A program made the position numbers and the translations under genes. DNA of 64,000 nucleotides from Thermomonas sp. Lineage in GTDB: Bacteria > Pseudomonadota > Gammaproteobacteria > Xanthomonadales > Xanthomonadaceae. Shown here piece after piece: positions 2,536-50,100 of the stretch. Within the stretch, counting starts at the first letter, position 1. The number at the start of each line of letters is the position of its first letter. The notes under the pieces were generated by a model. That model worked only from the letters and a program-made list of their open reading frames with translations. It was not told the DNA's origin and searched no databases. The stretch spans positions 33,079-97,078 of the forward strand of contig NZ_JAYRTQ010000005.1 of the NCBI RefSeq assembly GCF_041919455.1. The letters are read 5' to 3'.

Positions 2536-2970
2536 CTATGGGCTGGTCGGGCGCGCGTCCAATTCCGCGCCCAGGTCCGCAATAGCGGCCTCGAACGCCT
2601 CACCCGCACGCCTGTGCTCGTCCTGAGCAAAGGGGTTGCCCAGCGCCTGCAGGTAGTTGAGCCACTTCGCATACATCGCAGTTAGCTGCGGCCTTGAATC
2701 TGGCGCTTGCTCAAGAGTGGACCGATACAGGGGCTTAACCTTTTCCCGCATTTCAGCCTCGCATTTCAGGCCCACTTCGCCGGCTTGTTGAATTCGCTTC
2801 GCGCTGGCATTCGCGGGCACTTCGAGAGCCGCGAGCTGGCCATCAATTGAGCACTTGGCAGCATCCGCGCGCAGCTCTGTGATCAAGCGGGCCTCCGGCG
2901 AATCGGAGGCGGAATCCCCAGCGTGGGTGAGCCCCGGCATCAAGAGAATCACGAACAGCAGCTTATTCAT
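2536..2970 (-). CDS. secreted protein (cleavable signal peptide), moron downstream of repressor
   Basis: 144 aa, MNKLLFVILLMPGLTHA|GDS..., two Cys, helical. Start overlaps repressor stop (ATGA). Confidence 0.55.
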   Translation of the reverse strand: MNKLLFVILLMPGLTHAGDSASDSPEARLITELRADAAKCSIDGQLAALEVPANASAKRIQQAGEVGLKCEAEMREKVKPLYRSTLEQAPDSRPQLTAMYAKWLNYLQALGNPFAQDEHRRAGEAFEAAIADLGAELDARPTSP

Positions 2971-3392
2971 TTCGTCCCCTTATTCGGCGCGAGCCGCGCG
3001 GCGAGGCCACGTATCTGGCTTTGATCTTCCGGCGCGCAGCTCAGGTAGTCATCGAGCAGCTGTTGCGTCTCTTCATCCGCATCATAGGCAGACACGAGGG
3101 TCTCGAAGAAGGCTGTCTGTAGCCTGCCGAACTCCGCTTTGTCACCCGTCACCAATGCCGCCATCTCGGTCGCGGCCTTGATCGCATTTAGACGGCCACG
3201 AAGCTTCTTTGTAGTGCCTGTGACGATGTAATCGACATCTAGTCCGAGCCCCGCCCATGCCGCGAGTGCGGCGGCGTCAGGCGTTCTTTCTCCTGCTTCG
3301 TATCGGATGAGCGTTGTGCGCCCGATACCCAGCCTCTTCGCGAAGTCGACCTGACTCATATCCGCGCGCACTTGGCGGATTCGCTCACCCAT
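2967..3392 (-). CDS. prophage repressor, XRE-family HTH (Mu c / CI-like), no S24 peptidase domain
   Basis: MGERIRQVRADMSQVDFAKRLGIGRTTLIRYEAGERTP is a classic HTH_XRE. ORF table extends start to 3467 (MFPNGN...); the internal ATG at 3392 gives the usual HTH-at-N-terminus layout. Confidence 0.8.
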   Translation of the reverse strand: MGERIRQVRADMSQVDFAKRLGIGRTTLIRYEAGERTPDAAALAAWAGLGLDVDYIVTGTTKKLRGRLNAIKAATEMAALVTGDKAEFGRLQTAFFETLVSAYDADEETQQLLDDYLSCAPEDQSQIRGLAARLAPNKGTK

Positions 3393-3442
3393 CTGACGGT
3401 GGTGCTCTGGAATTGCCACTGAAAATGTCCCCGAACGGGTAT

Positions 3443-24900: not shown

Positions 24901-25586
24901 GGCGACTCCTGGGCGGCTGCGTGCGTTGGGGTTGCGGTTGGCGATTGCGTGAGGCCGGTGATGCCGGATTCGATCGATGCCACCAGCGTGGCGGCATCGC
25001 GCATCCGTGCTGCATCGTCCCGTCCTGCCAATGCAGCGCGATGCTGGACCAGCAGGCCTTCGACCTGCGGCAGCATGTGCTGATAACGGGCCGACAGTGC
25101 CTGCCCATTCTGCACCAGCACGCCGAGCTGGGTGGCAGTGAGCGTGCAGCCGAGGCGGCTGGATTCGAGCAGGCGCAGGCGCGTGTGATGGGTGGATGGA
25201 TCCGATGTGGTGGAAGCAAGGCCGGCGATGGCCGCATCGAATCCAGCGGCCAGCCCGGACAGGCGATCGCGCAACGAAGCAAGCGTGTGGTTGTGGCGTT
25301 CGAGTGCCTCGCCACGCTGGCGCGCCTGCAACACCAGCAGCGCGAGTTGCTCGCGCAGGGCGGTGGACTGCGCCTGCAGTTCGATGTCCCGGCCGAGCAG
25401 GCGGCCGAAGAAACCCACGCTTTTCCGCAAGGCACCCGCATCGGTCGACAACAGCACGGTGCGCAGGTCGCGCAGGGTCGCCTGGATGTCGTGCGCGGGC
25501 GACTGCAACGAAGCCGCCTCAGCCTGTGCGCGGCGCGCGGCATCGAGCAGGCTGGCGTCGTCGCGTGGAGTCTCCAGCGCGCTCAT
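24897..25586 (-). CDS. coiled-coil protein (229 aa) translationally coupled between giant ATPase and TelA (KlaA-like position?)
   Basis: ATGA overlaps at both ends. Heptad-rich. No recognisable domain. Confidence 0.55.
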   Translation of the reverse strand: MSALETPRDDASLLDAARRAQAEAASLQSPAHDIQATLRDLRTVLLSTDAGALRKSVGFFGRLLGRDIELQAQSTALREQLALLVLQARQRGEALERHNHTLASLRDRLSGLAAGFDAAIAGLASTTSDPSTHHTRLRLLESSRLGCTLTATQLGVLVQNGQALSARYQHMLPQVEGLLVQHRAALAGRDDAARMRDAATLVASIESGITGLTQSPTATPTHAAAQESP

Positions 25587-28500
25587 GACCCGTCGGTTTC
25601 GCCAGGCGGCTTCGCCCCGTCCGCTTTCCTCGCGTCCTCGGCCGCCTTGAACTTCAGCGCGCTGATGGTCCTCTCGAACGCACGTTCCTCTGGCGTGCGG
25701 ATGCGCGGCATGACCCGCTCAGCCGCATCGCGCGGCGCCGCGTTCGGCATGCCGCCGGCCTTCAGCGCCTCGACCAGTTCCAGCAGCGCCGAATGCAGGT
25801 GGTCCTGCCGCGCCAGGGTGCGCTCCAGGCCGTCGAGCAGCGGCTGGTGGGCGCTGCGCAGCAGGTCGCCGACGGGTGGCGCGGACGCTGCAACTGCGGC
25901 AGTGCTGGCCGTCGGCGTGGCGATGCGCGCCAGTGCGTCCAGCAACTCGCTCCAGGGCGGCGGTTGTGGTGAGACGGGCGCGGGTTCATCGCGCAGGCCC
26001 TGCAGGCCACCGGCGATGTCGGCCAGCTGCGCGACCATGCGCCCGCCGACATCGGCATCGTCCGCGCCCATCGCCTTGTTGCGCAGGAAGTCGGCCTTGA
26101 TCTGCGCCCAGCGCGCCTGCTGGTCCGGCGTCATCCGGTCAAGCAGTTCGCCGAGCTTGAGCAGGTTTTCCTCGGCACCTTGGGTGAGCAGTTGCGACTC
26201 GCCGAGGTAATGGTCGGCGATGACCTGGCGGAGCTCGGCATCGTTCATCACCGGCGAGATCTTTTCCGCCAGCTTGTTCATGTTGCGGTAGCTGCCCTGC
26301 AGCTTGAACGGTGGTTCCACGCGGTACTTGTCCGCCTGCGCGGCGCTGGCGATGTATTGCATGTTGACCTTGAACACCACTTCGCGGACCTGCAGCATCT
26401 TCTGCAGCACACCGACGATCTCGTTGATCTCGGCGCCGCTGTAGGCATGCGTCAGTGCATTGGTGGAGACCTCGCGGCCGCGCGCCTTGTCGACCAGCAG
26501 GTAGAGGTCGGCGAGATCGCGCGTGGCCAGCGGCGCGAGCACCGCATTGGAGGTAAGGCTGTTCTCGATGTAGCTGAGCAGGAACGTGTCTTCCATGCCG
26601 CCGAGCACGTCGCCCAAGTTGTAGATGTCGGCGCGGTTGGCCAGCATGTCCGGGATCTTGAAGGCCTCGCCGGACTCGGTGTACGGGTTGCCGGCCATCA
26701 CCACCGCGAACTTGCGTCCGCGCAGGTCGTAGGTGCGGGTGTTGCCGCGCCACACGCCTTCGATGCGACGGGTGCCGTCGCACAGCGAGATGAACTTCTG
26801 CAGGAATTCCGGATGGGTGTGCTGGATGTCGTCGACATACAGCATCACGTTGTTGCCCATCTCCAGCGCGAGATTCAACTTCTCCAATTCCTGGCGCGAG
26901 GTCGCGTCCGGCGCCTGCGCCGGGTCCAGTGAGCGCACCTGGTGGCCCAGCGACGGCCCGTTGATCTTCATGAAGACCAGGCCCAGCCGGTGCGCCACGT
27001 ATTCCATCAGCGTGGTCTTGCCGTAGCCGGGCGGGGAGATCAGCATCAGCAGGCCCATCAGGTCGCTGCGCTTGTCTTCCCCGACCGTGCCCATCTGCTT
27101 GGCGAGGTTGTCGCCGATCACGCGCAGGTAGACGTCGTTGATCAGCTTGTTGCGCACGAAGCTGGTCAGTGGCCGCGCCTTGAATTCCGACAGGCGCATC
27201 GTCTCGCGCTCGCGCTGCACGATGCGCGCGCGCACCTCCTGGTAGCGGCGGAATGCCGGGAGGAAGGTCGCCTGGTGCTGGCGCAGGCGCGATTGCAGGT
27301 CGTCGATGGCCAGGTGCAAGGTGCCGTCGACGATGCGCGCATGCTGCCCGAGCAGGCCGCTCGCATCCGCCATCAGGCGAACGTCAACGATGCGGTGCGG
27401 CAGCTTCGGGCCGTGCAGGTGCAGCGCCGCCGCTTCATGCGCGTAGGCGGCGAGGGCCGCATGTTCCGGACGTGCGACCAGTGCCTGCAGCCACTGCAGC
27501 AGCAACGACCATTGCGCGCCCGGACGATCCTGCAGGCGTTCCAGCGCCTGCTTGAACAAATCTTCGCTGCCGCTGGCGGCCAGTTGCACGCGCAGCGCAT
27601 CGAGCAGGTTCGCCGCGTAGCGCGTAAACGGCAGTTGGTCGGATTCCACGGTGATCGCGGCGATCAGGAACGTGGCGGCTTCGGCCTGGAGTCCATCTGC
27701 CAGTGGCAAGGCCTGTTCGGCGCGGAACTGTGCGACGGCGTCGGCGAGTTCATTCGCCAACGCGGTCGTCGCGGTCGCGTCCTGCAGGTGGCTGCGCACC
27801 GCCTTCGCATTGCGGATGCGTTCCAGCCAGCCGGTTTCAGGCGTGGCTTGGGCGTGCTGCCAGAACGCGGCGGCCAATGCGCGTGCATCGGCGGCATGCA
27901 CCAGCGGACCCGCCGGGCGATAGAGTGGCACCACCGCGCGCAGGATCAACGCGGCATCGTGGTCGTGGATGCCTTTCTCGTAGCCGTCACGATAGCGCGC
28001 GGAGGCGAATTCGCGCACGCGCGTCGCCAACGCGTCGGGATCGCCAACAAGGCGTTCCAGGGTGTCGATATCGAGGCCGTCACGGCCGGCCAGCGCGGCA
28101 TCGAGCAGTTGCCCGGCCAGGTATTCGCCGCGATACAGGTCCGGTGATTCGGATTCAAGCGTGACCTGCCAGAACGCACGCAACGCGGCGAGTTCCGGGT
28201 CGTGCAGCGGCGCCATGTAGTCGGTGCCGGTGAGGTGCACGGCCATGTCCTCGCCGCGCGGCAGCAGGGTCAGGTCGAGTGGCTGGGTGTTGACGCTGAA
28301 GCGGTGGCGCGGGCCCAGCTTGATGACGTTGCCGCCTTCCTCGAACAGGTCGCTGCGGTCGCGCAGCCCGCGCACGGCCTGGTCGCGCGCGGCCTTGATC
28401 CGCGATTCGATGTCGTCGGCCTTGACCGAGTCCTTCAGCGTGCGCAGGCGCTCGGCCAGCTCGCGCAGCTTCATCACCAGCGCATCGCCGGCAAAGAACG

Positions 28501-30922
28501 CATTGAGCTCGTCGGGATTGGTGAAGCGCTCGGTGCGTCGGCCAAGACCGTCGAAGATGCGATTGGCGGCATCGAGCACCGACCGCGCCTTGCGCTGGCG
28601 CTCGTCCATCAGCGCCTGGCGATGGGTCTCGAAGGTTTCCAGCAGTTCCTCGCGCTTGCCGAGGATGTCGCCGAGGAATTGTTCGTGCTCGCCGAACTGG
28701 CCCTCCAGTTCCTCCAGCTGCACCATCAGCCGCGAGAGCTGTTCGTCAGCGCGTTCCGGCGTGGTCGCCATGTCCAGCGCGCTGGCGACCGCCTGTGCGA
28801 ACAGCGAGAACTGCGCACCGAACTGCGCCACCGCCTCGGCGGAGCCCAGGGTCTTGCGCTTCTGCTCGGCGCGCGCGCGCGCCTGGTTCAACCTAGCGTA
28901 CAGGGCGGAGATCGCATCGACCACGCGGGTGCGCTGGGTGGCGTCGTCGACCTTCAGGCTGGCCATCAGCTCGGACAGGCGGTCGAGGTCGGCCGACATC
29001 GCCTGCATGCCGGCGAGTTGCTCGCCGAGCTGGGTGGCGGTCTGCGCTTTCTGCGCCTGTTCGTCCAGCGCCTGCAACGCCTGCTGCAGCGGCAGCAGGG
29101 CCTTGTCGCCGGCCAGGAAGTTGCCGGTCGCCACGCCCACGCGCTCGCTGGCCTGCTGCAGCTCGACACCCATCGCGTCGATCGCGGCGGTATCGATGTA
29201 GCGGTAATCGCGAATCGTCAGCAGGTGGCCGCGCTGCGCGGTGATCTCCGCCAGCGCATCGACGAAGGTCTGGATGCCGGTCCAGCCGTCGGGCTGCAGG
29301 CGACCGAGCAGGGCGCGCTGGGTCGCGCGCGCGCGGGTCATCGCAGCTTCCGACTGGCGCCGGACGTCCTGCACCTTGGCGAATTCGTCGAGCACCGATT
29401 CGCCGGTCGCGGCGATCTCATGGAGCAGGGTGGACAGGCCGCCGCATTGCGCGTCGTCGATCCAGTGGTGGATGTCGAACAGGCGCCGTGTGTTGTGCGC
29501 CAGCAGTTCGTAGCGCGCGGCGGAGACATCCTCGCGCTCGATGTCGCGGCCGAGGTCGAGCAGGTTGGACACTGCGCGCACCAGTTCGGCATTGCCGATC
29601 CGGCCCATGAAGCTGGTGCCCGGCGGACGGGCCGCCACGTATTCGTCGGAGGCGAACGGGGTCTGCCAGACCTGCATCTGGTGGACGCGGGTCGGGTCGT
29701 CGCTCTCGGCGTGGAAGAGCACCATGCGGCCGTCGTGCAGGCGTGCGTAACCGTGCGCGAGCACCGGCGGCTGCAGCCGGCGCTGGATCATGTTGTAGAC
29801 CAGCAGCGCGGACAGGCCGGAGTCGCGCTCGTAGAACACATAGAGCACGTCCTCGCCGTTCGGCGAGCGGATCATCCGCTTGTACTGCATGCCCTGCACG
29901 GCGGCGTCGAAGGCCTTGTGCTCGCCGTTCTGCAGGTAATAGCCGCCGGGAAAAATGATGCCGTGGTCTTCCGGCAACTGGATGCAGGCCTGGACGATCG
30001 CGTCCTGGCGCACCGCCTTGCCGGTCAATGTGTTGTAGACCAGCCCGCGCCAGGTGGTCTCGCGGTAGGGCAGCACCTTCAGCAGGATCAGCGCACCGAC
30101 CCTGGCGAAATGGATCTGCGCATCGTCGAGCGATTGCGTTTCGTCCTCGACCGATTCGCTGTAGATGCCGGCGCCGGTCTCGGTGTTGTTCTCGACCTTG
30201 AGGGTGAGGTCGCCGCCGGTGGTCTCGACGAACAGGGTGTCGAGGATGTTGAGGTGCGGGAAGCGCCCGCTGACTTCCAGCGACTTGGTGGCGCGGATCC
30301 ATTCGAAGTCGAACGGTGGCGGCAGCGCGATGTCGCGTTCGCCGCGCGCGTCGATGTAGCCGACCTCCCCGCTGCTGGCGATCGACCAGCGGAACACGCG
30401 CACGTCGTTCGCGTTGAGGCCGATCTGGAACGCGGCCAGCAGCTTGCCGTCGCGCACGATCAGCTGCAGCAGCCGCGCGTCCTTGTAGTACGCATAGAGT
30501 TCGGTGAAGTCGCGGATGAAGCCGGCATCGCCGAGGAAGCTGCCCGCGTGGTCGACCGGGGTGACGTCGTAGCCATCGCCGACCTCGACCAGGCGGTACA
30601 GGCCGAACACGTCGGACACGCTGGTAGTCGACTTCAGGCCCATGAAGACGTTGAAGCCGAACAGCAGCATGTCGCCGACCTGGACGATGTCGCGGCCCAC
30701 GCAGTTGTGCTCGCTGCGGATGCGCAAGCGGCCGACCAGCTCCATCTTGCTGTCGCCGAATTCCTGCAGGCGCTGCGCATTGATGCCTTGCGCGATCGCC
30801 TGCAGTTTCTGGCCCTGCTCGCCCAGCCGGCGCCGCAGCACTTCGTACGCGCCGCCCTGCGCGACCGCCTGGTCGACCAGCGAGTCGCCGCCCGTCGCCT
30901 GCTTGTCCGTGCCGTCCGTCAT
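25583..30922 (-). CDS. giant (1,779 aa) multidomain protein with embedded MoxR/dynein-class AAA+ ATPase module
   Basis: Walker A LISPPGYGKTTLMEY encoded at ~27.02-27.04 kb. Walker B VMLYVDDIQH. Sensor-1/Arg-finger region AVVMAGNPYTESGEAFKIPDMLANRADIYNL parallels MoxR 'ATQNP...PLPEAQLDRF'. Long coiled-coil middle region. P/A-rich C-terminus. Confidence 0.75.
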   Translation of the reverse strand: MTDGTDKQATGGDSLVDQAVAQGGAYEVLRRRLGEQGQKLQAIAQGINAQRLQEFGDSKMELVGRLRIRSEHNCVGRDIVQVGDMLLFGFNVFMGLKSTTSVSDVFGLYRLVEVGDGYDVTPVDHAGSFLGDAGFIRDFTELYAYYKDARLLQLIVRDGKLLAAFQIGLNANDVRVFRWSIASSGEVGYIDARGERDIALPPPFDFEWIRATKSLEVSGRFPHLNILDTLFVETTGGDLTLKVENNTETGAGIYSESVEDETQSLDDAQIHFARVGALILLKVLPYRETTWRGLVYNTLTGKAVRQDAIVQACIQLPEDHGIIFPGGYYLQNGEHKAFDAAVQGMQYKRMIRSPNGEDVLYVFYERDSGLSALLVYNMIQRRLQPPVLAHGYARLHDGRMVLFHAESDDPTRVHQMQVWQTPFASDEYVAARPPGTSFMGRIGNAELVRAVSNLLDLGRDIEREDVSAARYELLAHNTRRLFDIHHWIDDAQCGGLSTLLHEIAATGESVLDEFAKVQDVRRQSEAAMTRARATQRALLGRLQPDGWTGIQTFVDALAEITAQRGHLLTIRDYRYIDTAAIDAMGVELQQASERVGVATGNFLAGDKALLPLQQALQALDEQAQKAQTATQLGEQLAGMQAMSADLDRLSELMASLKVDDATQRTRVVDAISALYARLNQARARAEQKRKTLGSAEAVAQFGAQFSLFAQAVASALDMATTPERADEQLSRLMVQLEELEGQFGEHEQFLGDILGKREELLETFETHRQALMDERQRKARSVLDAANRIFDGLGRRTERFTNPDELNAFFAGDALVMKLRELAERLRTLKDSVKADDIESRIKAARDQAVRGLRDRSDLFEEGGNVIKLGPRHRFSVNTQPLDLTLLPRGEDMAVHLTGTDYMAPLHDPELAALRAFWQVTLESESPDLYRGEYLAGQLLDAALAGRDGLDIDTLERLVGDPDALATRVREFASARYRDGYEKGIHDHDAALILRAVVPLYRPAGPLVHAADARALAAAFWQHAQATPETGWLERIRNAKAVRSHLQDATATTALANELADAVAQFRAEQALPLADGLQAEAATFLIAAITVESDQLPFTRYAANLLDALRVQLAASGSEDLFKQALERLQDRPGAQWSLLLQWLQALVARPEHAALAAYAHEAAALHLHGPKLPHRIVDVRLMADASGLLGQHARIVDGTLHLAIDDLQSRLRQHQATFLPAFRRYQEVRARIVQRERETMRLSEFKARPLTSFVRNKLINDVYLRVIGDNLAKQMGTVGEDKRSDLMGLLMLISPPGYGKTTLMEYVAHRLGLVFMKINGPSLGHQVRSLDPAQAPDATSRQELEKLNLALEMGNNVMLYVDDIQHTHPEFLQKFISLCDGTRRIEGVWRGNTRTYDLRGRKFAVVMAGNPYTESGEAFKIPDMLANRADIYNLGDVLGGMEDTFLLSYIENSLTSNAVLAPLATRDLADLYLLVDKARGREVSTNALTHAYSGAEINEIVGVLQKMLQVREVVFKVNMQYIASAAQADKYRVEPPFKLQGSYRNMNKLAEKISPVMNDAELRQVIADHYLGESQLLTQGAEENLLKLGELLDRMTPDQQARWAQIKADFLRNKAMGADDADVGGRMVAQLADIAGGLQGLRDEPAPVSPQPPPWSELLDALARIATPTASTAAVAASAPPVGDLLRSAHQPLLDGLERTLARQDHLHSALLELVEALKAGGMPNAAPRDAAERVMPRIRTPEERAFERTISALKFKAAEDARKADGAKPPGETDGS

Positions 30923-30998
30923 CCCTGCATCCTTTCCATGGCGTCGTGTGCCAGCGCTTCAATGCGGGCAATCGCGCCAATGCATGCCCGCAACCGCG

Positions 30999-33002
30999 TC
31001 ACGCGTTGTCTGCGTCGTTGGCCAGCGCCGGACGCAGTTCCACCCCGGCGACCTTGGACAGCAACTGCTGCAGGATGGGGCTGTGCTGCGCCAGGCCCTC
31101 CATCGCCTTGCCCAGCGACACGCCCTTGGTCAGCGCATCGAACACGCCGCCGTCGCCGCCGATCAGTTCGATGTTGGCACCGCGCAGCGCTTCGCCCAGT
31201 ACCTCGGCATTCTCCTTCGACACCTGGCGGCCGGCCTCGATCGATGCCAGTGCCTGCTTCAGCCCGGTCTCCAGCGCCATCCGGAATTCCTCGTGGCTGC
31301 GCGACTCGAGGCTCATCTTGTCCATCGCGTCGAACTTGGACGTCAGGCCCTCGGCTTCCGCGGCCATGCGCTTGCCGATCGAGGTCGCCTCTGCATCGCC
31401 CATCGCCTGCGTGGCATCGGCCTGGGCGCGGCCCATCTGCGCCTTGTTCTCCGCCTCGGCACGGCCCATCTGCGCCTTGCCGTCCGCTTCCGCGGCCAGC
31501 CGTTCGGCCAGCACCTTGGCGTCCGCGCTGCCCTGCTTGTAGTTGGCCTGCGCCTTGGCCTCGATCACCCGCGCCTCGGCCACGCCGACCTTCTCCACCG
31601 CCGCCGCATTCGCTTCGCGCACCTGCGCGTCCGCCAGGCCAGGCGCGGCGCGTTCGGCGCGCACGCCATCGGCCAGCATCTTCTTGGCTTCGGCCTGCTT
31701 GTTGGCGGCCAGCAATTCGGCATCGGCCAGCGTGGTCATCTCGACCGCGCGGTGCTTCGCCGCGGTTTCCGCCGCCTCGGCGGCCTTCACTTCCTTGACC
31801 AGGACTTCCTGCGCGTCGGCTTCCGCCTGCAGGATGGTGACCTGCTTGGCGCGGTCGGCCTCCGCCACCTCGCGGGTTTCCTTGATCTTCTCCTGGGCGA
31901 TGGCGACGGTCTGGTCGATGACCGTGCGCTCGCGGACGATGTTGGCGACCTCCATGCGGCCGTTCTCGACCGCCTTGTCGCGCTCGACGCCCTGCAACTG
32001 CACTTCGCGATCGGTGGTGACCTTCTCCAGTTGCTTGGCGCGCTCGACGCGCTCCTGCTCGATGGTCACCGCGCGCTGGCGGTTCTGCTCGGCCACTTCG
32101 ACCTGGCGCAGCTGTTCCTGCTCGCGGATCTTGATCAGTTCGTCGGACTGCAGGCGTGCGTTCTCGGAGATCAATCGCTGCTCTTCGCGCACGCGCGCGG
32201 TCTCGGCTTCCTCGCGGGCCTGCACGGATTCGATCTCACGCTTCTGGCGGGCTTCCGCCTCGGCCTGCTGACGCTCGAGCGCGAGCAGCGCTTCACGGGC
32301 GCTGACGTTCTTCTGGGTGATCTGCAGCTTCTCGTCCTGCTCCAGTTCGTTGGTCTTGACGTTCTGCAGCGCGGTCAGTTCGGTGATCTTGCGGATGCCT
32401 TCGGCATCCAGGATGTTGTTGTGATCGAGCAGGTTCTTGGGCGTCTGCTCGAGGTAGTCGATGGCCACGTCCTCCAGCACGTAGCCATTGAGGTCGTTGC
32501 CGATGACCTTGACGATCTCGTCGCGGAATTCCTGGCGCTTCTCGAACAGGTCGGTGAACTCGAACTTCTTGCCGACCGTCTTCAGCGCCTCGGAGAACTT
32601 GGCGTTGAACAGTTCATCCACCGCGTTCTTGTCGGAGGCGCGGTCCGCGCCGATCGCCTTGGCCACGCGCAGCACGTCGGCCTGGGTTTCGTTGACGCGC
32701 AGGTAGAACGCCACGGTGATGTCGGCGCGCATGTTGTCCTTGCAGATCAGGCCTTCCTTGCCGCGGCGATCCACCTGCAGGGTGATCAGGCTGATCTTCA
32801 TCAATTCGGCGCGGTAGAGGACCGGCACGATCAGCGCACCGGTGAAGTGCACCTTCGGCTGCGAGCTCATGTCGTTGACGATCAGGGCGGTGCCCTGGTC
32901 GACCTTCTTGTAGAAAGCCTTGAACAGGCCCATCAGGCCGAAAATGAACACCAGCAGGACGCCGAGGCCGACGAGGAAGGGTGCGATTTGAGCGAAGGTC
33001 AT
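30999..33002 (-). CDS. yqiK: flotillin-family SPFH protein (YqiK-like)
   Basis: 667 aa. N-terminal TM, SPFH/band-7 domain, then very long Ala/Glu-rich coiled coil. Confidence 0.85.
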   Translation of the reverse strand: MTFAQIAPFLVGLGVLLVFIFGLMGLFKAFYKKVDQGTALIVNDMSSQPKVHFTGALIVPVLYRAELMKISLITLQVDRRGKEGLICKDNMRADITVAFYLRVNETQADVLRVAKAIGADRASDKNAVDELFNAKFSEALKTVGKKFEFTDLFEKRQEFRDEIVKVIGNDLNGYVLEDVAIDYLEQTPKNLLDHNNILDAEGIRKITELTALQNVKTNELEQDEKLQITQKNVSAREALLALERQQAEAEARQKREIESVQAREEAETARVREEQRLISENARLQSDELIKIREQEQLRQVEVAEQNRQRAVTIEQERVERAKQLEKVTTDREVQLQGVERDKAVENGRMEVANIVRERTVIDQTVAIAQEKIKETREVAEADRAKQVTILQAEADAQEVLVKEVKAAEAAETAAKHRAVEMTTLADAELLAANKQAEAKKMLADGVRAERAAPGLADAQVREANAAAVEKVGVAEARVIEAKAQANYKQGSADAKVLAERLAAEADGKAQMGRAEAENKAQMGRAQADATQAMGDAEATSIGKRMAAEAEGLTSKFDAMDKMSLESRSHEEFRMALETGLKQALASIEAGRQVSKENAEVLGEALRGANIELIGGDGGVFDALTKGVSLGKAMEGLAQHSPILQQLLSKVAGVELRPALANDADNA

Positions 33003-33032: not shown

Positions 33033-33674
33033 CTAGTGCGCGTTGAACTGCGATTCGGAAATGACGAGATAGGTATTGGCGTTGGCGTCGTGCTCCAGCA
33101 GGACCACGCGGTCGCCGCGGACGAAGCGTTCCGGCGGCACAACCCGCACTTGCAGGATCAGGCCGGCACCGCCATCGGCGAATTCGGCGCGGCCTTGGTT
33201 GGCGTCGACCTCGGGCGATATCACCGTGCCGGCGCGGCCGAGGAGGCTGGGCGCGACCGGCGGACGCAGCTTGACCAGCAGCTTGCGCACCGGCCGCAGC
33301 AACAGCGAGGTGACGAACACGCCGGGCACCAGGGCGCCGACCAGGGTGGCGATGCCGCCGAGCAGGCGCAGCGGCGCCGGCAGGTGTTGCAGCACCAGCA
33401 GGTGCACGAAGTACGTGGCCATCCAGCCGAAGAACGACAGCACGGTGAGCACGATCATGATCGGCACGCCGCCCAGCCCGAGGCGGGCCAGCAGGCCGGC
33501 GCTGTCGGTGGCATGGTGGCTGTCGCCGCCGCCATCGCCACTCAACAGGCCGTCGATCGCGTCGATGTCGACCAGTCCCGTTGCGGCCAGCAACCAGTAG
33601 ACGACGCAGAACGCCAGCAGGATGCTGTAGGGCAGCGTGGGGAAGGTCAGCGCGGTGTGCAGGAATTCGGTCAT
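33033..33674 (-). CDS. yqiJ: NfeD-like membrane protein (YqiJ-like partner of flotillin)
   Basis: 213 aa. Multi-TM N-terminal half plus C-terminal OB-fold-like beta region. Immediately upstream of the flotillin gene, as in E. coli yqiJK. Confidence 0.7.
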   Translation of the reverse strand: MTEFLHTALTFPTLPYSILLAFCVVYWLLAATGLVDIDAIDGLLSGDGGGDSHHATDSAGLLARLGLGGVPIMIVLTVLSFFGWMATYFVHLLVLQHLPAPLRLLGGIATLVGALVPGVFVTSLLLRPVRKLLVKLRPPVAPSLLGRAGTVISPEVDANQGRAEFADGGAGLILQVRVVPPERFVRGDRVVLLEHDANANTYLVISESQFNAH

Positions 33675-33686
33675 GCGGCGTCCGGG

Positions 33687-34364
33687 TCAGCGCTTGGCGG
33701 TCGAGGGCGAAGGGGCTTTCGGCTTGATGCGTCTGGCGATGCGTTCCAGGACCTGGTCGGCCGCATCGCCCGCCGCCTCCTTCGGGGAAACGGGCGTGGC
33801 ACGGGAATCCGGCCCGCCCGTGGCCTTGCGCTGGCGTGCGCGTTGCGCCGGTGCCAGCGCCGGTTCCGGATGCGCGGTCTCCGTGGATCGGCGCCGCGCC
33901 ACGCTGGCCTGCGCCTGTTGCAGGCTGGCGCTTGCGCGCAGCGTATCGACCTGGTGTTTCAAACGGCGCAGCTGGTGTTCGCCCTGTTCGAGCACGTGCG
34001 CCAGTTCGGTTTCCCTGGCCTGCAGGGATTCCGCACGCTCGCGCTCCTCGTCCCGGTGGGACTGCAACGCCACGATCCGCTCCGCGGCCTCGCGCGCCTG
34101 GGTGCGCTTGCGCGTGTGCAGCGCCTGCTCGGCCTCTGCGGTGAGCGCGGCGATGCGCGTGCGCAGGTCCTGCTCGTGTTGCTCGCCGACGATGCGGGCG
34201 GCCTTGGTACTGGCGATGTCGGCGCGCACCCGATGCAGGGTGTCATCGAGGTCGCGGATGTCCTGGTCCAGCTGGCGCTCGACCTTGTCGCCGAACAGCG
34301 CATCGGAGACGCCGGCGACGTCCTCGCCCAGCCTCGCCAGCCATTGTCCGAGCAGGCCCGACAT
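33687..34364 (-). CDS. PspA/IM30 (phage-shock protein A / YjfJ-like) family protein
   Basis: ~226 aa from MSGLLGQWLARLGEDVAGVSDALFGDKVERQLDQDIRDLDDTLHRV... Pattern of PspA N-terminal helix then coiled coil. Start overlaps stop of upstream gene (TGATG). Confidence 0.8.
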   Translation of the reverse strand: MSGLLGQWLARLGEDVAGVSDALFGDKVERQLDQDIRDLDDTLHRVRADIASTKAARIVGEQHEQDLRTRIAALTAEAEQALHTRKRTQAREAAERIVALQSHRDEERERAESLQARETELAHVLEQGEHQLRRLKHQVDTLRASASLQQAQASVARRRSTETAHPEPALAPAQRARQRKATGGPDSRATPVSPKEAAGDAADQVLERIARRIKPKAPSPSTAKR

Positions 34365-34990
34365 CACGCCGCCGATTCCGCGGGCAGCAGGTAGCCGGCG
34401 AAGGCGTCGGTGGCGCCCAGCACGTTTTCCGCCAGGGTCTCGATTTCGAACATCAGGCTGGCCAGCCGCGAATGCGCGTCGAGCGCGCCGAACATGATGT
34501 AGCCGGGGACGCCGGCGACGGCCTGCACGGCAATGGTGGAGAGCGGCAGCAGCTTCTGCGTGCGCAGCACGTGCAGGTTGAACAGGGCGGGGTCGGCGAC
34601 CATCGCCACCGGCCACAGGTAGGCCTCGACGATGATCTGCCCGCCGACTGCGGCGACGAACAGCGACAGGTCGCCATGTTCGCGGAGGACCAGGTGCAGG
34701 CTCGGCTCCGCGCCCTCGATGGTCTCGATGCCGATCAGCCCGTCGCGGACCGCGCTGGTCTCGCCCAGTGCATGGCGGATCGTGGCGATGGTCCAGCCGG
34801 CCTCGGCGTGCATGGGTGCTGCCGAGTCGCGCTCGGGGTCGCGCATGGACTTTTCGATGGCGGCCAGCTCCGCTGCGTACTCGGGGCGGATCCACACGTC
34901 CTTCTTGACCAGGCCTTGCTCGCGCAGCCGCTCCCGATACCTGCGCTGGTGCTCGGTGGAGGTCTTCGGGGTGGCTTGACCATCTTTCAT
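34364..34990 (-). CDS. fusion protein: RHH-like N-terminal segment + YjfI/DUF2170-like domain, first gene of operon
   Basis: Probable start MKDGQATPKTSTEHQRRYRERLREQGLVKKDVWIRPEYAAELAAIEK (RHH-like). C-terminal ~130 aa resembles E. coli YjfI, which precedes the PspA paralog yjfJ. ORF table starts at a TTG (35026) inside the palindrome. Confidence 0.5.
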   Translation of the reverse strand: MKDGQATPKTSTEHQRRYRERLREQGLVKKDVWIRPEYAAELAAIEKSMRDPERDSAAPMHAEAGWTIATIRHALGETSAVRDGLIGIETIEGAEPSLHLVLREHGDLSLFVAAVGGQIIVEAYLWPVAMVADPALFNLHVLRTQKLLPLSTIAVQAVAGVPGYIMFGALDAHSRLASLMFEIETLAENVLGATDAFAGYLLPAESAA

Positions 34991-35020
34991 GTAATTGAAT
35001 CTATTTCTTACATGAAAGAT
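34982..35020. promoter_or_regulatory. AT-rich perfect inverted repeat operator/promoter at head of the PspA-flotillin-TelA operon
   Basis: ATCTTTCATGTAA-N13-TTACATGAAAGAT: 13-bp perfect arms with 13-bp AT-rich spacer. Left arm contains the ATG of the first gene. Lowest-GC stretch in the locus. Lies between this operon and divergent ssb. Confidence 0.5.
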
Positions 35021-35186
35021 CGTCAAGCGGTTTCTGGCGAGGATCCCGCCAGCTCCGTCGTGGAGGCCTGCCGGGTGTGCGTGGATTTCCTACCTAGTCC
35101 CACGGCGCCGCCCGACTGCGCCGGGGCCGGCCGCTATACTCCACTGTCAGTCGTCCGATCCGGACGAAACCGAGTCGAGGAAGAAC

Positions 35187-35714
35187 ATGGCACGCGGCGT
35201 GAACAAGGTGATCCTGGTCGGCAACCTGGGCAACGACCCCGAGGTGAAGTACACGCAGGGCGGCATGGCGATCACCAAGGTCAGCCTGGCCACCAGTTCG
35301 GTCCGCAAGGACAAGGACGGCAACCAGCAGGAAAAGACAGAGTGGCATCGGGTGACCTTCTTCGGCAAGCTCGGCGAGATCGCCGGCGAGTACCTGAAGA
35401 AGGGCTCGCAGGTCTACGTCGAAGGACGGATCACCTACAGCGAGACGACCGGCGACGACGGCCAGAAGCGCTACTTCACCGACATCGTGGCAGACGAGAT
35501 GCAGATGCTCGGCGGCCGTGAAGGCGGTGCCGCGGGTGGTGGCGGTGGCGCGCCGCGCGAAGGCGGCTTCCAGCGCAGTGGCGGGGGAGGCGGCGGCAGC
35601 TACGGCAGCGGCGGCGATCGCCAGCAGCGCGCACCGGCCCAGCGTCGCGATCCCGCGCCGGCCAAGCCGGCCAACTTCGACGACGTGCCGTTCGACGACG
35701 ACATCCCGTTCTGA
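35187..35714 (+). CDS. ssb: single-stranded DNA-binding protein
   Basis: OB-fold N-terminus [19 protein letters not shown]..., Gly-rich linker, acidic tip DDDIPF. Confidence 0.9.
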
Positions 35715-50044: not shown

Positions 50045-50100
50045 CACCGATCCGGTGGTTGCAACGACGCCCGGCATGCCGGGCGTCGTCGTGCCTGCGC

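Follow-up and report, generated by a model that had tools for sequence, protein, structure and literature searches.

A two-box promoter/operator and a putative self-repressing regulator at the head of a PspA-flotillin operon in Thermomonas

The operon and its first protein

The window, that is, the whole 64-kb stretch of Thermomonas DNA analysed here, contains a membrane-stress operon, probably of five genes, encoded on the minus strand. Its order is bacA, pspA-like yjfJ, a gene for a membrane protein that takes the yqiJ position, then the flotillin-like and AAA+ genes. The first gene (bacA, or long-form yjfI; 34364..34990) encodes a protein of 208 aa composed of an N-terminal DNA-binding-like domain, a linker and a DUF2170 domain. 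Its stop codon overlaps the start (TGATG) of the PspA/IM30-family gene (yjfJ or bacB-like, 33687..34364; Pfam PspA_IM30, E=5e-13), and a PspA-family gene is adjacent in 78 of 80 loci, the other two contigs ending just after the first gene. The membrane protein (213 aa, 33033..33674, bacC position) has no Pfam or NCBIfam match and occupies the slot of the YqiJ/YuaF-type protein of Ravi et al.; the flotillin-like SPFH/Band-7 protein (667 aa, 30999..33002, bacD position) matches Pfam Band_7 over its N-terminal 267 aa (E=7e-6). Both positions are conserved in 70 of the 80 loci. A 1779-aa DUF3686 and AAA+ ATPase protein (25583..30922; Pfam DUF3686, E=4e-191, with DUF7902 and AAA_5) is encoded 76 nt downstream of the flotillin gene on the same strand and is probably the last gene product of the operon; it fits the 'novel AAA+-ATPase' partner described for this operon type (Ravi et al., 10.1101/2020.09.24.301986). 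On the other side of bacA lies ssb (35187-35714, plus strand; Pfam SSB, E=1e-36), the divergent gene named in an earlier note on this DNA. The gene is indeed present, but as an incidental neighbour, shared only with the closest relative (L001).

The DUF2170-like domain recognised in the earlier note is confirmed by Pfam (PF09938), which matches residues 66-201 (34388..34795, minus strand) with E=2e-40 and 138 bits against a cutoff of 27. This domain has a type III secretion chaperone-like fold and is presumed to bind a partner or to act as a sensor. Its sequence matches P. aeruginosa BacA (PDB 8q8o) with a phmmer E of 6e-33, while its predicted model finds the same structure in Foldseek (E=7e-16, TM 0.93-0.95), followed by AmyR/YbjN, ExsC and SicP. 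In the AlphaFold2 model, pLDDT is 81-91 in 10 of the 13 ten-residue blocks of residues 71-200, and 62-73 in the blocks at 61-70 and 141-150.

Over most of its length the protein also aligns to the NCBIfam model 'biofilm formation regulator BacA' (NF050185), residues 9-201 corresponding to positions 4-202 of 206. It scores 246 bits, below the equivalog cutoff of 300, and the 206-aa ORF of P. aeruginosa scores 339. The window protein is of the same architecture as P. aeruginosa BacA but a more distant orthologue. Homologues number 964 and, among the matches listed, are mostly 206-220 aa long; an alignment of 19 of them shows a conserved 'MK' start and N-terminal segment. The N-terminal domain has a GC3 of 0.90 and DUF2170 one of 0.93.

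The paired palindromes and the promoter

The start of bacA is embedded in an inverted repeat (34974-35028, assigned to no strand) with 21-nt arms (34974-34994 and 35008-35028) that contain one mismatch and flank a 13-nt spacer. Direct reading and a repeat finder agree on the perfect 13-13-13 palindrome claimed in the earlier note as its core (34982-35020), with arms ATCTTTCATGTAA at 34982-34994 and TTACATGAAAGAT at 35008-35020. Chance would hardly produce it: only two inverted repeats in the window are perfect over 13 nt or more with a loop no longer than 30 nt, compared with a mean of 0.21 in 100 dinucleotide-preserving shuffles. It also lies, as had been claimed, in a patch of lowest GC content (0.38 at 34970-35029 versus ~0.65-0.75 around it). 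Each arm had been said to contain an M-K-D sequence, in opposite directions. The ATG of bacA (34990-34988, minus strand) does fall in the left arm, but the plus-strand ATGAAAGAT is a mere by-product of the symmetry, and the mirror ORF that would begin there was rejected as a spurious frame running out of frame through ssb.

The reading of this element as an operator is upheld by the analysis, but its functional unit is not the 13-13-13 repeat and consists instead of two 10-bp palindromic boxes ~23 bp apart. The core 10-mer TTACATGTAA is self-palindromic, and two imperfect copies of it make up the working unit of the palindrome. With at most one mismatch it occurs exactly twice in the 64 kb, at 34985 and 35008, where 0.08 occurrences are expected. 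The box consensus is T[T/C]ACATGT[A/G]A, and the two copies are 23 bp apart from centre to centre. Box 1 (35008..35017, minus strand; TTTCATGTAA in gene sense) has the consensus TT[T/A]CATGTAAG at -27 from the ATG, with flanks that are not conserved. Box 2 (34985..34994, minus strand; TTACATGAAA in gene sense) spans the predicted transcription start, contains the ATG and takes position -4 among type-A orthologues. Of the long palindrome, the outermost 8 nt on each side are conserved no further than the closest relative.

The boxes interlock with a sigma-70-type promoter on the minus strand in the order -35 hexamer TTGACG (35021..35026), box 1 within the spacer, -10 hexamer TAGATT (34998..35003) and box 2 with the ATG. 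This is the sole sigma-70-like site between 34700 and 35400 (9/12 matches, 17-nt spacer, 0.1 expected), and TTGACA is conserved at the -35 in 42 type-A orthologues. The -10 is separated by 7 nt from the A of the ATG, and no Shine-Dalgarno motif was found in the 20 nt upstream of this codon. The layout of -10, box 2 and ATG suggests a leaderless mRNA, which is predicted to start at the ATG or 1-2 nt before it. In 65 of 83 loci the distance from the end of a TAnnnT -10 to the ATG is 5-9 nt, and a Shine-Dalgarno-like motif of any kind is seen in only 9 of the 83. Experimental knowledge of the leaderless start comes from the PA14 orthologue only. The start of the PA14_16140-16150 transcription unit has been mapped to 1374599 (PMC3460626, Table S3), a position that precedes the annotated short start by 177 nt (59 codons) and falls exactly on the ATG of the 206-aa ORF.

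Comparison of orthologous upstream regions, proposed in the earlier note as a check and as a possible refutation, bears out the conservation of the element. At one-mismatch stringency, at least one box is present in 80 of 83 loci: at least two in 64, one in 16 and none in 3. The spacing between boxes is 21-24 bp in 59 of the 64 loci with at least two. Strict boxes are concentrated at the gene, 88 of 91 falling within 110 nt upstream of it in a search of 80 genome loci (769 kb). The loci range over Lysobacteraceae, Pseudomonas, Chromatiales, Thiotrichaceae, Rhodospirillales and a deltaproteobacterial group. In the type-A set (42 non-identical upstream regions), conservation is confined to the -35, box 1, the -10 region and box 2, and the flanks carry no information. 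Type-B loci follow another order, namely box, TTGACA, box, -10, six nt and ATG. The second box is degenerate in the Pseudoxanthomonas group.

The N-terminal domain and its association with the boxes

The putative DNA-binding module corresponds to residues ~9-50 of the protein (KTSTEHQRRYRERLREQGLVKKDVWIRPEYAAELAAIEKSMR; 34841..34966, minus strand). It is the most conserved part of the protein and contains the majority of the invariant columns (R16, R19, R21, R23, G26, V28-I34 and P36). Monomer models by AlphaFold2 (mean pLDDT 75, pTM 0.35) predict a helix at 10-24, an extended segment at 25-35 and a helix at 36-49, followed by the linker. The domain is rich in arginine and lysine and resembles small dimeric repressors in size and secondary structure.

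The earlier note had called this segment ribbon-helix-helix-like, a label that the analysis does not confirm. The canonical ribbon-helix-helix order is an N-terminal strand, helix A and helix B, whereas the order predicted here is helix, extended segment, helix; no ribbon-helix-helix family scores above threshold, and free-standing homologues of 46 aa stop after the second helix. A permuted or ribbon-helix-helix-like arrangement is possible. Palindromic 10-bp boxes are compatible with a ribbon-helix-helix dimer that inserts an antiparallel ribbon in the major groove, without being proof of one.

No family matches the domain above its curated threshold. Among 16 N-domains, 14 match PF11455 ('Antitoxin MazE-like', former DUF3018), all below threshold (17.5 bits versus 22). 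No toxin gene lies beside the locus, whose neighbours are the fused DUF2170 and the pspA-like gene; membership of PF11455 was rejected on both grounds. Other weak sub-threshold matches point to NCBIfam UrfF ('plasmid repression protein F') and to phrog_536 ('transcriptional regulator'), and one free-standing homologue weakly matches the 'LexA regulated protein' PRK11675. A Foldseek search of the PDB with a 58-aa model gave no match, a profile search of PDB sequences gave noise only, and the literature on 'UrfF', 'plasmid repression protein' and DUF3018/PF11455 held nothing useful for the fold or the operator.

The domain also occurs free-standing, as proteins of 46-78 aa encoded in four unrelated small-ORF contexts. 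These genes have one ACATGT- or ACGCGT-centred palindrome in the promoter of their operon, which in three of the four contexts lies between -35 and -10: TTGACG-GTTACGCGTAAC-TATAGT (L083), TTGACG-TTACATGTAA-TAGTAT (L084/L085) and TTGATG-TGACATGTCA-TATAAT (L094). In the fourth (L093), a TCACATGTGA box is located ~80 nt upstream of the gene. E. coli yjfI, which encodes 133 aa without the N-domain and served as a negative control, shows no box over 12 kb. Since most of the loci are orthologues, shared descent explains part of the correlation between domain and box, and the free-standing cases are few. A further candidate (P0145) was left out of the stand-alone count; on its 3x-coverage contig the N-domain, DUF2170 and PspA appear in fragments, probably as a result of frameshifts. 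Searches by tblastn with a free-standing homologue against phage genomes found nothing; with the N-domain as query, plasmids yielded only YjfI-family genes, on Pseudomonas megaplasmids. It is most likely the N-domain of the operon's first protein that would bind the boxes.

The type of box tracks the clade of the protein, TTACATGTAA-type boxes occurring with the motif KKDVWI and TCACATGTGA with KKELWV. A simple residue-to-base specificity code (KKDVWI versus KKELWV for TTA versus TCA) was considered and set aside as confounded by phylogeny.

A self-repression model and related systems

Several explanations of the element other than self-repression deserve attention. Another trans-acting regulator might use the operator, the N-domain of BacA/YjfI then being devoted to oligomerisation or to RNA or protein binding; the domain has no above-threshold match to a DNA-binding family, and box and gene were perhaps co-inherited simply as neighbours. 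This explanation is unlikely in view of the palindromes of the same type in promoters of free-standing N-domain genes, where the context is unrelated, and of the missing box upstream of E. coli yjfI, which has no such domain. The basic composition and repressor-like size and structure of the domain also speak against it, as does the variation of box sequence with protein clade. A shared bidirectional control region that would also regulate divergent ssb in this lineage is suggested by the TTGACC that the long palindrome places on the plus strand (34976-34981), mirroring the -35, and by the start of ssb 160 nt away. However, no plus-strand promoter passes the scan of 34700-35400, the mirrored -10 position reads ATCTAT, the outer arms of the palindrome are not conserved, and the boxes are conserved beside neighbours other than ssb, which makes joint control quite unlikely.

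The other two explanations are further from what was found. If transcribed, the segment 34960-35040 (minus strand) would fold at -29.7 kcal/mol (z = -9) with the AUG in a stem, as might be expected of a hairpin in a longer 5′ leader that hides the start codon and controls translation or stability. Yet the predicted transcript begins inside the 3′ arm, because the 5′ arm overlaps the -35 and box 1 precedes the -10, and in PA14 the start was mapped to the ATG itself. One of the boxes stands upstream of the -35 in type-B loci; conservation concerns sequence, each box being its own palindrome, rather than compensatory pairing, and promoter hexamers occupy the spacer. No Rfam family was recognised in 34700-35300, where the only matches were miRNA hairpins below threshold, and control by a hairpin is considered highly improbable. 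The same degree of doubt applies to a sigma-54 promoter served by an enhancer-binding protein, as in classical psp operons, for which the palindrome would be irrelevant. A putative RpoN site has been proposed upstream of the short pA3732 ORF (PMC2587700, PMC10948618), and an 8/11 match (CGGCAGCACCCATGCA) is found in the window just 5′ of the internal Met60. The latter site, however, lies in conserved sequence that encodes the N-domain and linker, and no well-scoring GG-N10-GC site is present upstream of the true start. In PA14, transcription begins 177 nt upstream of the short ORF, beside a sigma-70-type -10, and the genes identified beside the locus (ssb upstream, the operon downstream) include no PspF-like activator.

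The reading that is preferred, and that we regard as likely, is a two-box promoter/operator through which the five-gene membrane-stress operon would repress itself by the N-domain of its first protein, with DUF2170 coupling this activity to the PspA-like partner. The earlier note had already suggested autoregulation by the fused protein through the palindrome, and the suggestion gains support from the conserved element, its overlap with the promoter, the co-occurrence of domain and box, the PA14 start and the protein levels of a bacA mutant. The ~45-residue helix-strand-helix domain would bind both boxes, probably as one dimer per box, and their occupation would block RNA polymerase; as the block is exerted by the product of the first gene, the operon would repress itself. 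The DUF2170 domain most likely binds the PspA-like protein of the adjoining gene, and the free pool of this membrane-repair protein would thereby be coupled to repressor activity, in what would be a one-protein counterpart of PspA-PspF or ExsC-type partner switching. The analysis shows the anatomy of the sequence, its conservation, the pairing of domain with box, the transcription start of the P. aeruginosa orthologue and the fold of the C-terminal domain; from these we infer that the N-domain binds DNA, in which direction it regulates, the partner switch, and that the Thermomonas gene acts as its orthologues do. In the bacA::MAR2xT7 mutant of P. aeruginosa, BacB-F are over-produced 6-13 fold, from which negative control by BacA was deduced by proteomics (PMC10948618); the mutation is a transposon insertion, and transcription reading out of the transposon could on its own increase the amounts of these proteins. 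The partner-switch step would rest on one predicted and one unpublished interaction: contact between BacA and BacB has been predicted by AlphaFold2 with a probability of 0.981 (PMC13092808) and reported as unpublished work.

A wider proposal, to which about even weight can be given for and against, is that the N-domain would represent an undescribed DNA-binding family that reads ACATGT-centred 10-bp palindromes, and that fused BacA/long-YjfI would act as a sigma-54-independent feedback regulator on a leaderless promoter, released or strengthened by the PspA-like ESCRT-III protein. Operons that, like this one, combine PspA/ESCRT-III and flotillin genes are widely distributed among Proteobacteria; what is known of their regulation is the PspF/sigma-54 paradigm. 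The P. aeruginosa bac operon affects biofilm formation, swarming, rhamnolipid secretion and virulence, and BacA has been termed 'a possible regulator', without a mechanism. In the same species PA3731 is induced by osmotic shock. What can be offered here is a concrete candidate mechanism, comprising an operator sequence, a 45-residue module that may bind DNA, a promoter of the sigma-70 type whose mRNA would be leaderless, and the PspA-like partner as the possible signal. If true, it would provide the missing regulator of a widespread PspA-flotillin membrane-repair operon, along with a small, apparently uncharacterised family of candidate repressor domains having a common, recognisable operator.

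The closest known system is the bacABCDEF 'biofilm-associated cluster' of P. aeruginosa, whose first gene (bacA; PA3732 / PA14_16140) is orthologous to that of the window (PMC2587700, PMC10948618; PDB 8q8o). Both operons share the order DUF2170 protein, PspA-like protein, membrane protein, flotillin-like protein and large downstream genes, and the DUF2170 parts are 48% identical with a TM-score of 0.93. Like the window gene, the 206-aa ORF of P. aeruginosa has the N-domain, two TTACATGTGA boxes, sigma-70-like -35 and -10 hexamers, and its ATG follows the -10 by 6 nt. Pseudomonas has both boxes upstream, whereas in the clade of the window box 2 lies on the start codon. Published work on BacA used a 147-aa annotation without the N-domain, and the crystal chain (146 aa in PDB 8q8o) is DUF2170 only. 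In the P. aeruginosa studies a sigma-54 promoter was put forward (PMC2587700, PMC10948618), and regulation was taken to act through protein-protein contacts only. The words 'DNA-binding', 'palindrom' and 'helix' are absent from the main text of PMC10948618, and the further papers on this locus that the analysis covered mention neither a DNA-binding domain nor an operator. The 147-aa reference annotation, on which the crystal structure and promoter analysis are based, omits the part of BacA that probably regulates; if the proposal is true, the published structure and promoter model describe a truncated protein.

Other systems resemble the locus in part. The E. coli YjfI-YjfJ pair (yjfIJKLMC operon) likewise consists of a DUF2170 protein followed by a PspA-family protein, the CesT/Tir-PspA dyad of Ravi et al. 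(10.1101/2020.09.24.301986). E. coli YjfI differs in its 133 aa without the N-domain and in its downstream genes (DUF2491, DUF350, DUF1190 and GSP-synthetase-like). The small dimeric beta-ribbon repressors and antitoxins (Arc, Mnt, CopG, PF11455 and UrfF) share with the proposal a module of ~45 residues and short palindromes over their own -35/-10, often with a fused or paired partner-binding part; their canonical order is strand, helix, helix, in contrast to the helix, extended segment and helix predicted for the window N-domain. Unlike the classical Psp regulon, the locus shows no enhancer-binding activator of the AAA+ type among the genes identified beside it, and no good sigma-54 site ahead of the true start. 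The PspA-PspF and ExsC-ExsE-ExsD-ExsA circuits are alike in principle, in that the free pool of an effector or chaperone-type protein feeds back on its own operon, and the fold of ExsC is among those matched by the window's DUF2170 in Foldseek. They differ from the window protein, in which the presumed DNA-binding domain and the chaperone-like domain are joined in one chain and for which repression of a sigma-70 promoter is predicted.

Two boxes within the bacA promoter

The first gene of the putative membrane-stress operon, bacA or long yjfI (208 aa; minus strand, ATG at 34990, stop at 34364), begins where GC content drops to 0.38 over 60 nt (34970-35029) against ~0.65-0.75 in the surrounding region; ssb, on the plus strand, adjoins the 5′ end of the operon and starts at 35187. 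This low-GC setting and divergent neighbor are as the earlier note described them, and its perfect 13-13-13 palindrome is exact: the arms ATCTTTCATGTAA (34982-34994) and TTACATGAAAGAT (35008-35020) are separated by 13 nt, the former contains the start codon, and both lengthen to 21 nt with one mismatch. The 64-kb window has just two perfect inverted repeats with arms of 13 nt or more and a loop no longer than 30 nt, compared with a mean of 0.21 in dinucleotide-preserving shuffles. The other (50064-50089) is loop-free and GC-rich, with halves ACGACGCCCGGCA and TGCCGGGCGTCGT.

Real as the repeat is, the functional unit appears to be not one palindrome but two boxes within a promoter. Allowing one mismatch, the self-complementary 10-mer TTACATGTAA occurs once in each arm and nowhere else in the window, two copies against an expected 0.08. 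Scanning 34700-35400 revealed one sigma-70-like promoter (9/12 matches, 0.1 expected), on the minus strand, with a -35 TTGACG (35026-35021), a 17-nt spacer and a -10 TAGATT (35003-34998), and none on the plus strand. Box 1 (35017-35008, minus) lies within the spacer, while box 2 (34994-34985, minus) starts 3 nt past the -10 and includes the ATG; in gene sense the site reads GC-TTGACG-ATC-TTTCATGTAA-GAAA-TAGATT-CAA-TTACATGAAA-GATGG. The perfect 13-mer symmetry results from mirror-wise departures of the two boxes from the consensus (TTTCAT… and …ATGAAA), the second being dictated by the Met-Lys with which the protein conservedly starts. The mirrored start seen earlier in both arms exists on the plus strand as ATGAAAGAT, but was rejected as a gene start since it opens only a spurious frame and has no promoter. 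The A of the bacA ATG is the eighth base past the -10, no Shine-Dalgarno motif was found upstream of it, and the mRNA is predicted to be leaderless or to carry a 1-2-nt leader.

Conservation of operon, operator and N-terminal domain

In 80 loci, sampled as one genome per species, the order DUF2170 protein, PspA-like protein, membrane protein and flotillin-like protein is retained in 70, and a Thermomonas MAG (87% identity), the closest relative, is the only one with ssb alongside. In the window, the 213-aa membrane protein (33033-33674, minus), in its conserved-order position, and the flotillin-like protein (30999-33002, minus) gave no Pfam or NCBIfam matches at full length under default settings; Band_7 emerged only when the N-terminal 267 aa of the latter were scanned alone, presumably because its long coiled-coil biases the score. 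The gene directly downstream (25583-30922, minus; 1779 aa, DUF3686, DUF7902 and AAA+) is probably the last of the operon and would correspond to the ‘novel AAA+ ATPase’ partner in the operon class (CesT/Tir-like, PspA, Band-7/flotillin, YqiJ, AAA+) described by Ravi et al. (10.1101/2020.09.24.301986), whose account of this class, in the portions available, makes no mention of a DNA-binding extension. The 76-nt gap before it contains a GC-rich hairpin without a T-run (~30960-31000).

The 769 kb of the 80 loci contain 91 strict boxes, T[TC]ACATGT[AG]A, 88 of them at most 110 nt upstream of the gene. When the window, a locus from P. aeruginosa and a low-GC metagenomic one are included (83 loci), boxes at one mismatch number at least two in 64, one in 16 and none in three; absence from orthologous loci had been proposed as a refutation, and at least one box is found in 80/83. 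Of the 64 loci with at least two boxes, 59 have them spaced 21-24 bp apart; in 65/83, the end of a TAnnnT hexamer lies 5-9 nt ahead of the ATG, and only 9/83 show any SD-like motif. Type A, the clade of the window (…GLVKKDVWI…), has the consensus cTTGacaa..TTtCATGTAAg..ata...T.gaTTaCATGAAAGC over 42 sequences, the remainder being unconserved; in type B (…KKELWV…), to which Pseudomonas belongs among others, the order is box, N3-4, TTGACA, N3-4, box, C, -10, N6, ATG. In both, the spacer holds one box, with the other over +1 or just upstream of the -35, geometries that would both suit promoter occlusion.

Variant geometries occur upstream in L066, L074, L075, L080 and L082 (homologous loci): L066:1-94 contains TTACATGTAA three times, the boxes of Rhodospirillales-type loci are just 14 bp apart, start to start, and in L082 long YjfI has E. 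coli-like surroundings (yjfK/L/M and GSP-synthetase). In L091 (2582-2700), a low-GC distant homologue with 36% identity to BacA, TTACATGTAA boxes persist upstream despite a linker of ~80 residues between N-domain and DUF2170. A second conserved motif, CCGTTCGTCGGA, is found in a single copy in each of 16 loci (including L026-L029, L031, L037, L039, L041, L049, L052, L054, L055, L060, L062 and L065; e.g. L026:4921-4932), 55-75 nt upstream of the gene start and in every case immediately 5′ of the operator region; in 15/16 it lies on the same strand. Variants are found in further type-B loci, and the window promoter lacks the motif.

The fusion of an N-terminal segment to a YjfI/DUF2170 domain holds (residues 66-201, E=2e-40); the predicted DUF2170 model superposes on P. 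aeruginosa BacA (PDB 8q8o, TM 0.93), with weaker matches to YbjN/AmyR, ExsC, SicP and other type III secretion chaperones. The best-conserved part is the N-domain (residues ~9-50), encoded in 80/80 loci and invariant at R16, R19, R21, R23, G26, V28-I34 and P36 in 19 aligned homologues; its third-position GC (0.90) resembles that of the remaining gene. In the AF2 prediction, residues 10-24 and 36-49 form helices on either side of an extended segment (25-35), whereas the canonical ribbon-helix-helix is strand, helix, helix, and neither sequence nor fold searches matched a solved structure; the ribbon-helix-helix label is therefore treated as unproven. Matches to PF11455 ‘Antitoxin MazE-like’ (14/16 members, all sub-threshold) and weak ones to NCBIfam UrfF ‘plasmid repression protein F’ and phrog_536 ‘transcriptional regulator’ make it look like a small dimeric repressor module.

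Profile searches of 1.84 billion representative proteins gave 319 N-domain relatives: DUF2170 fusions, many complete domain-only proteins of 46-70 aa and one nucleotidyltransferase fusion. The latter (P0299, 151 aa; an N-domain-like segment with NTP_transf_2/Polbeta), whose architecture recalls toxin-antitoxin systems, suggests that the N-domain may be a mobile DNA-binding module. Four free-standing genes with sufficient upstream DNA, in unrelated contexts (chiefly runs of small ORFs), carry TTGACG-GTTACGCGTAAC-…TATAGT (L083), TTGACG-TTACATGTAA-…TAGTAT (L084/L085), TTGATG-TGACATGTCA-…TATAAT (L094) and TCACATGTGA ~80 nt upstream (L093). E. coli yjfI lacks the N-domain, and no box was found within 12 kb. 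This co-occurrence of box and domain is the strongest argument that the N-domain, rather than another factor, would read the boxes.

The P. aeruginosa bac cluster

The same operon is the ‘biofilm-associated cluster’ bacA-F of P. aeruginosa (PMC2587700, PMC10948618). BacA has 147 aa in the PAO1/PA14 reference annotations, and RefSeq additionally holds a 206-aa form. This longer ORF starts MQRKSSAHYQRVFRQRLREQGLVKKEVWILPEN…; ahead of it stand two boxes flanking TTGAAA, TTACATGTGA-N12-TTACATGTGA, followed by TAGTGT and, six nt later, the ATG (L087:2757-2808 and 2806-3426; in the 138 residues compared, this P. aeruginosa metagenomic contig shows 100% identity to BacA). The 147-aa annotation, which begins at internal Met60, is the form used for the crystal structure 8q8o, spanning the DUF2170 part only, and for the proposed sigma-54 promoter. 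According to the mapping of Wurtzel et al. (PMC3460626, Table S3), PA14_16140-16150 transcription starts at 1374599, which leaves a 177-nt ‘5′ UTR’ before the annotated ORF at 1374776. As 177 nt is exactly 59 codons, transcription begins with the first base of the start codon of the 206-aa ORF, which confirms, for the PA14 orthologue, the leaderless mRNA and sigma-70-type promoter.

Autorepression and its alternatives

The N-domain, probably as dimers held in pairs by a DUF2170 dimer, would occupy both boxes and occlude the promoter; such autorepression of the operon is the probable reading. The 6-13-fold accumulation of BacB-F in a bacA::MAR2xT7 mutant (PMC10948618) fits loss of a repressor, transposon read-out being an alternative. 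By binding the PspA-like protein, DUF2170 might link repressor activity, in either direction, to how much of that protein is free. This coupling is more tentative; a BacA-BacB contact is reported as unpublished work and predicted at a probability of 0.981 (PMC13092808).

Recognition of the boxes by a different factor is unlikely, given that they accompany the N-domain in unrelated contexts. An element common to the operon and ssb is about as improbable, and would be compatible with autorepression. An RNA hairpin at the inverted repeat is very improbable: the repeat would fold stably (-29.7 kcal/mol), but the predicted transcription start comes after the 5′ arm. Just as remote is a sigma-54 promoter, proposed for bac together with chaperone-type regulation by the BacA authors (PMC2587700, PMC10948618; ‘DNA-binding’, ‘palindrom’ and ‘helix’ are absent from the main text of the latter). 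Its 8/11 consensus match in the window, CGGCAGCACCCATGCA (34809-34824, minus), falls within the bacA coding sequence, just 5′ of the internal Met60, and probably corresponds to the ‘RpoN site’ that has been reported ahead of the short ORF in P. aeruginosa.

The gene family, its ‘possible regulator’ role and the RefSeq annotation of the long form are already known; the accessible parts of the bac/yjfI-locus literature yielded no description of a DNA-binding domain, an operator or a leaderless sigma-70 promoter, nor, as far as found, of the free-standing homologue family with the same operator. Judged from sequence, the system would be classed as an autoregulated operon whose repressor has two parts, a small DNA-binding module and a domain that binds a partner.
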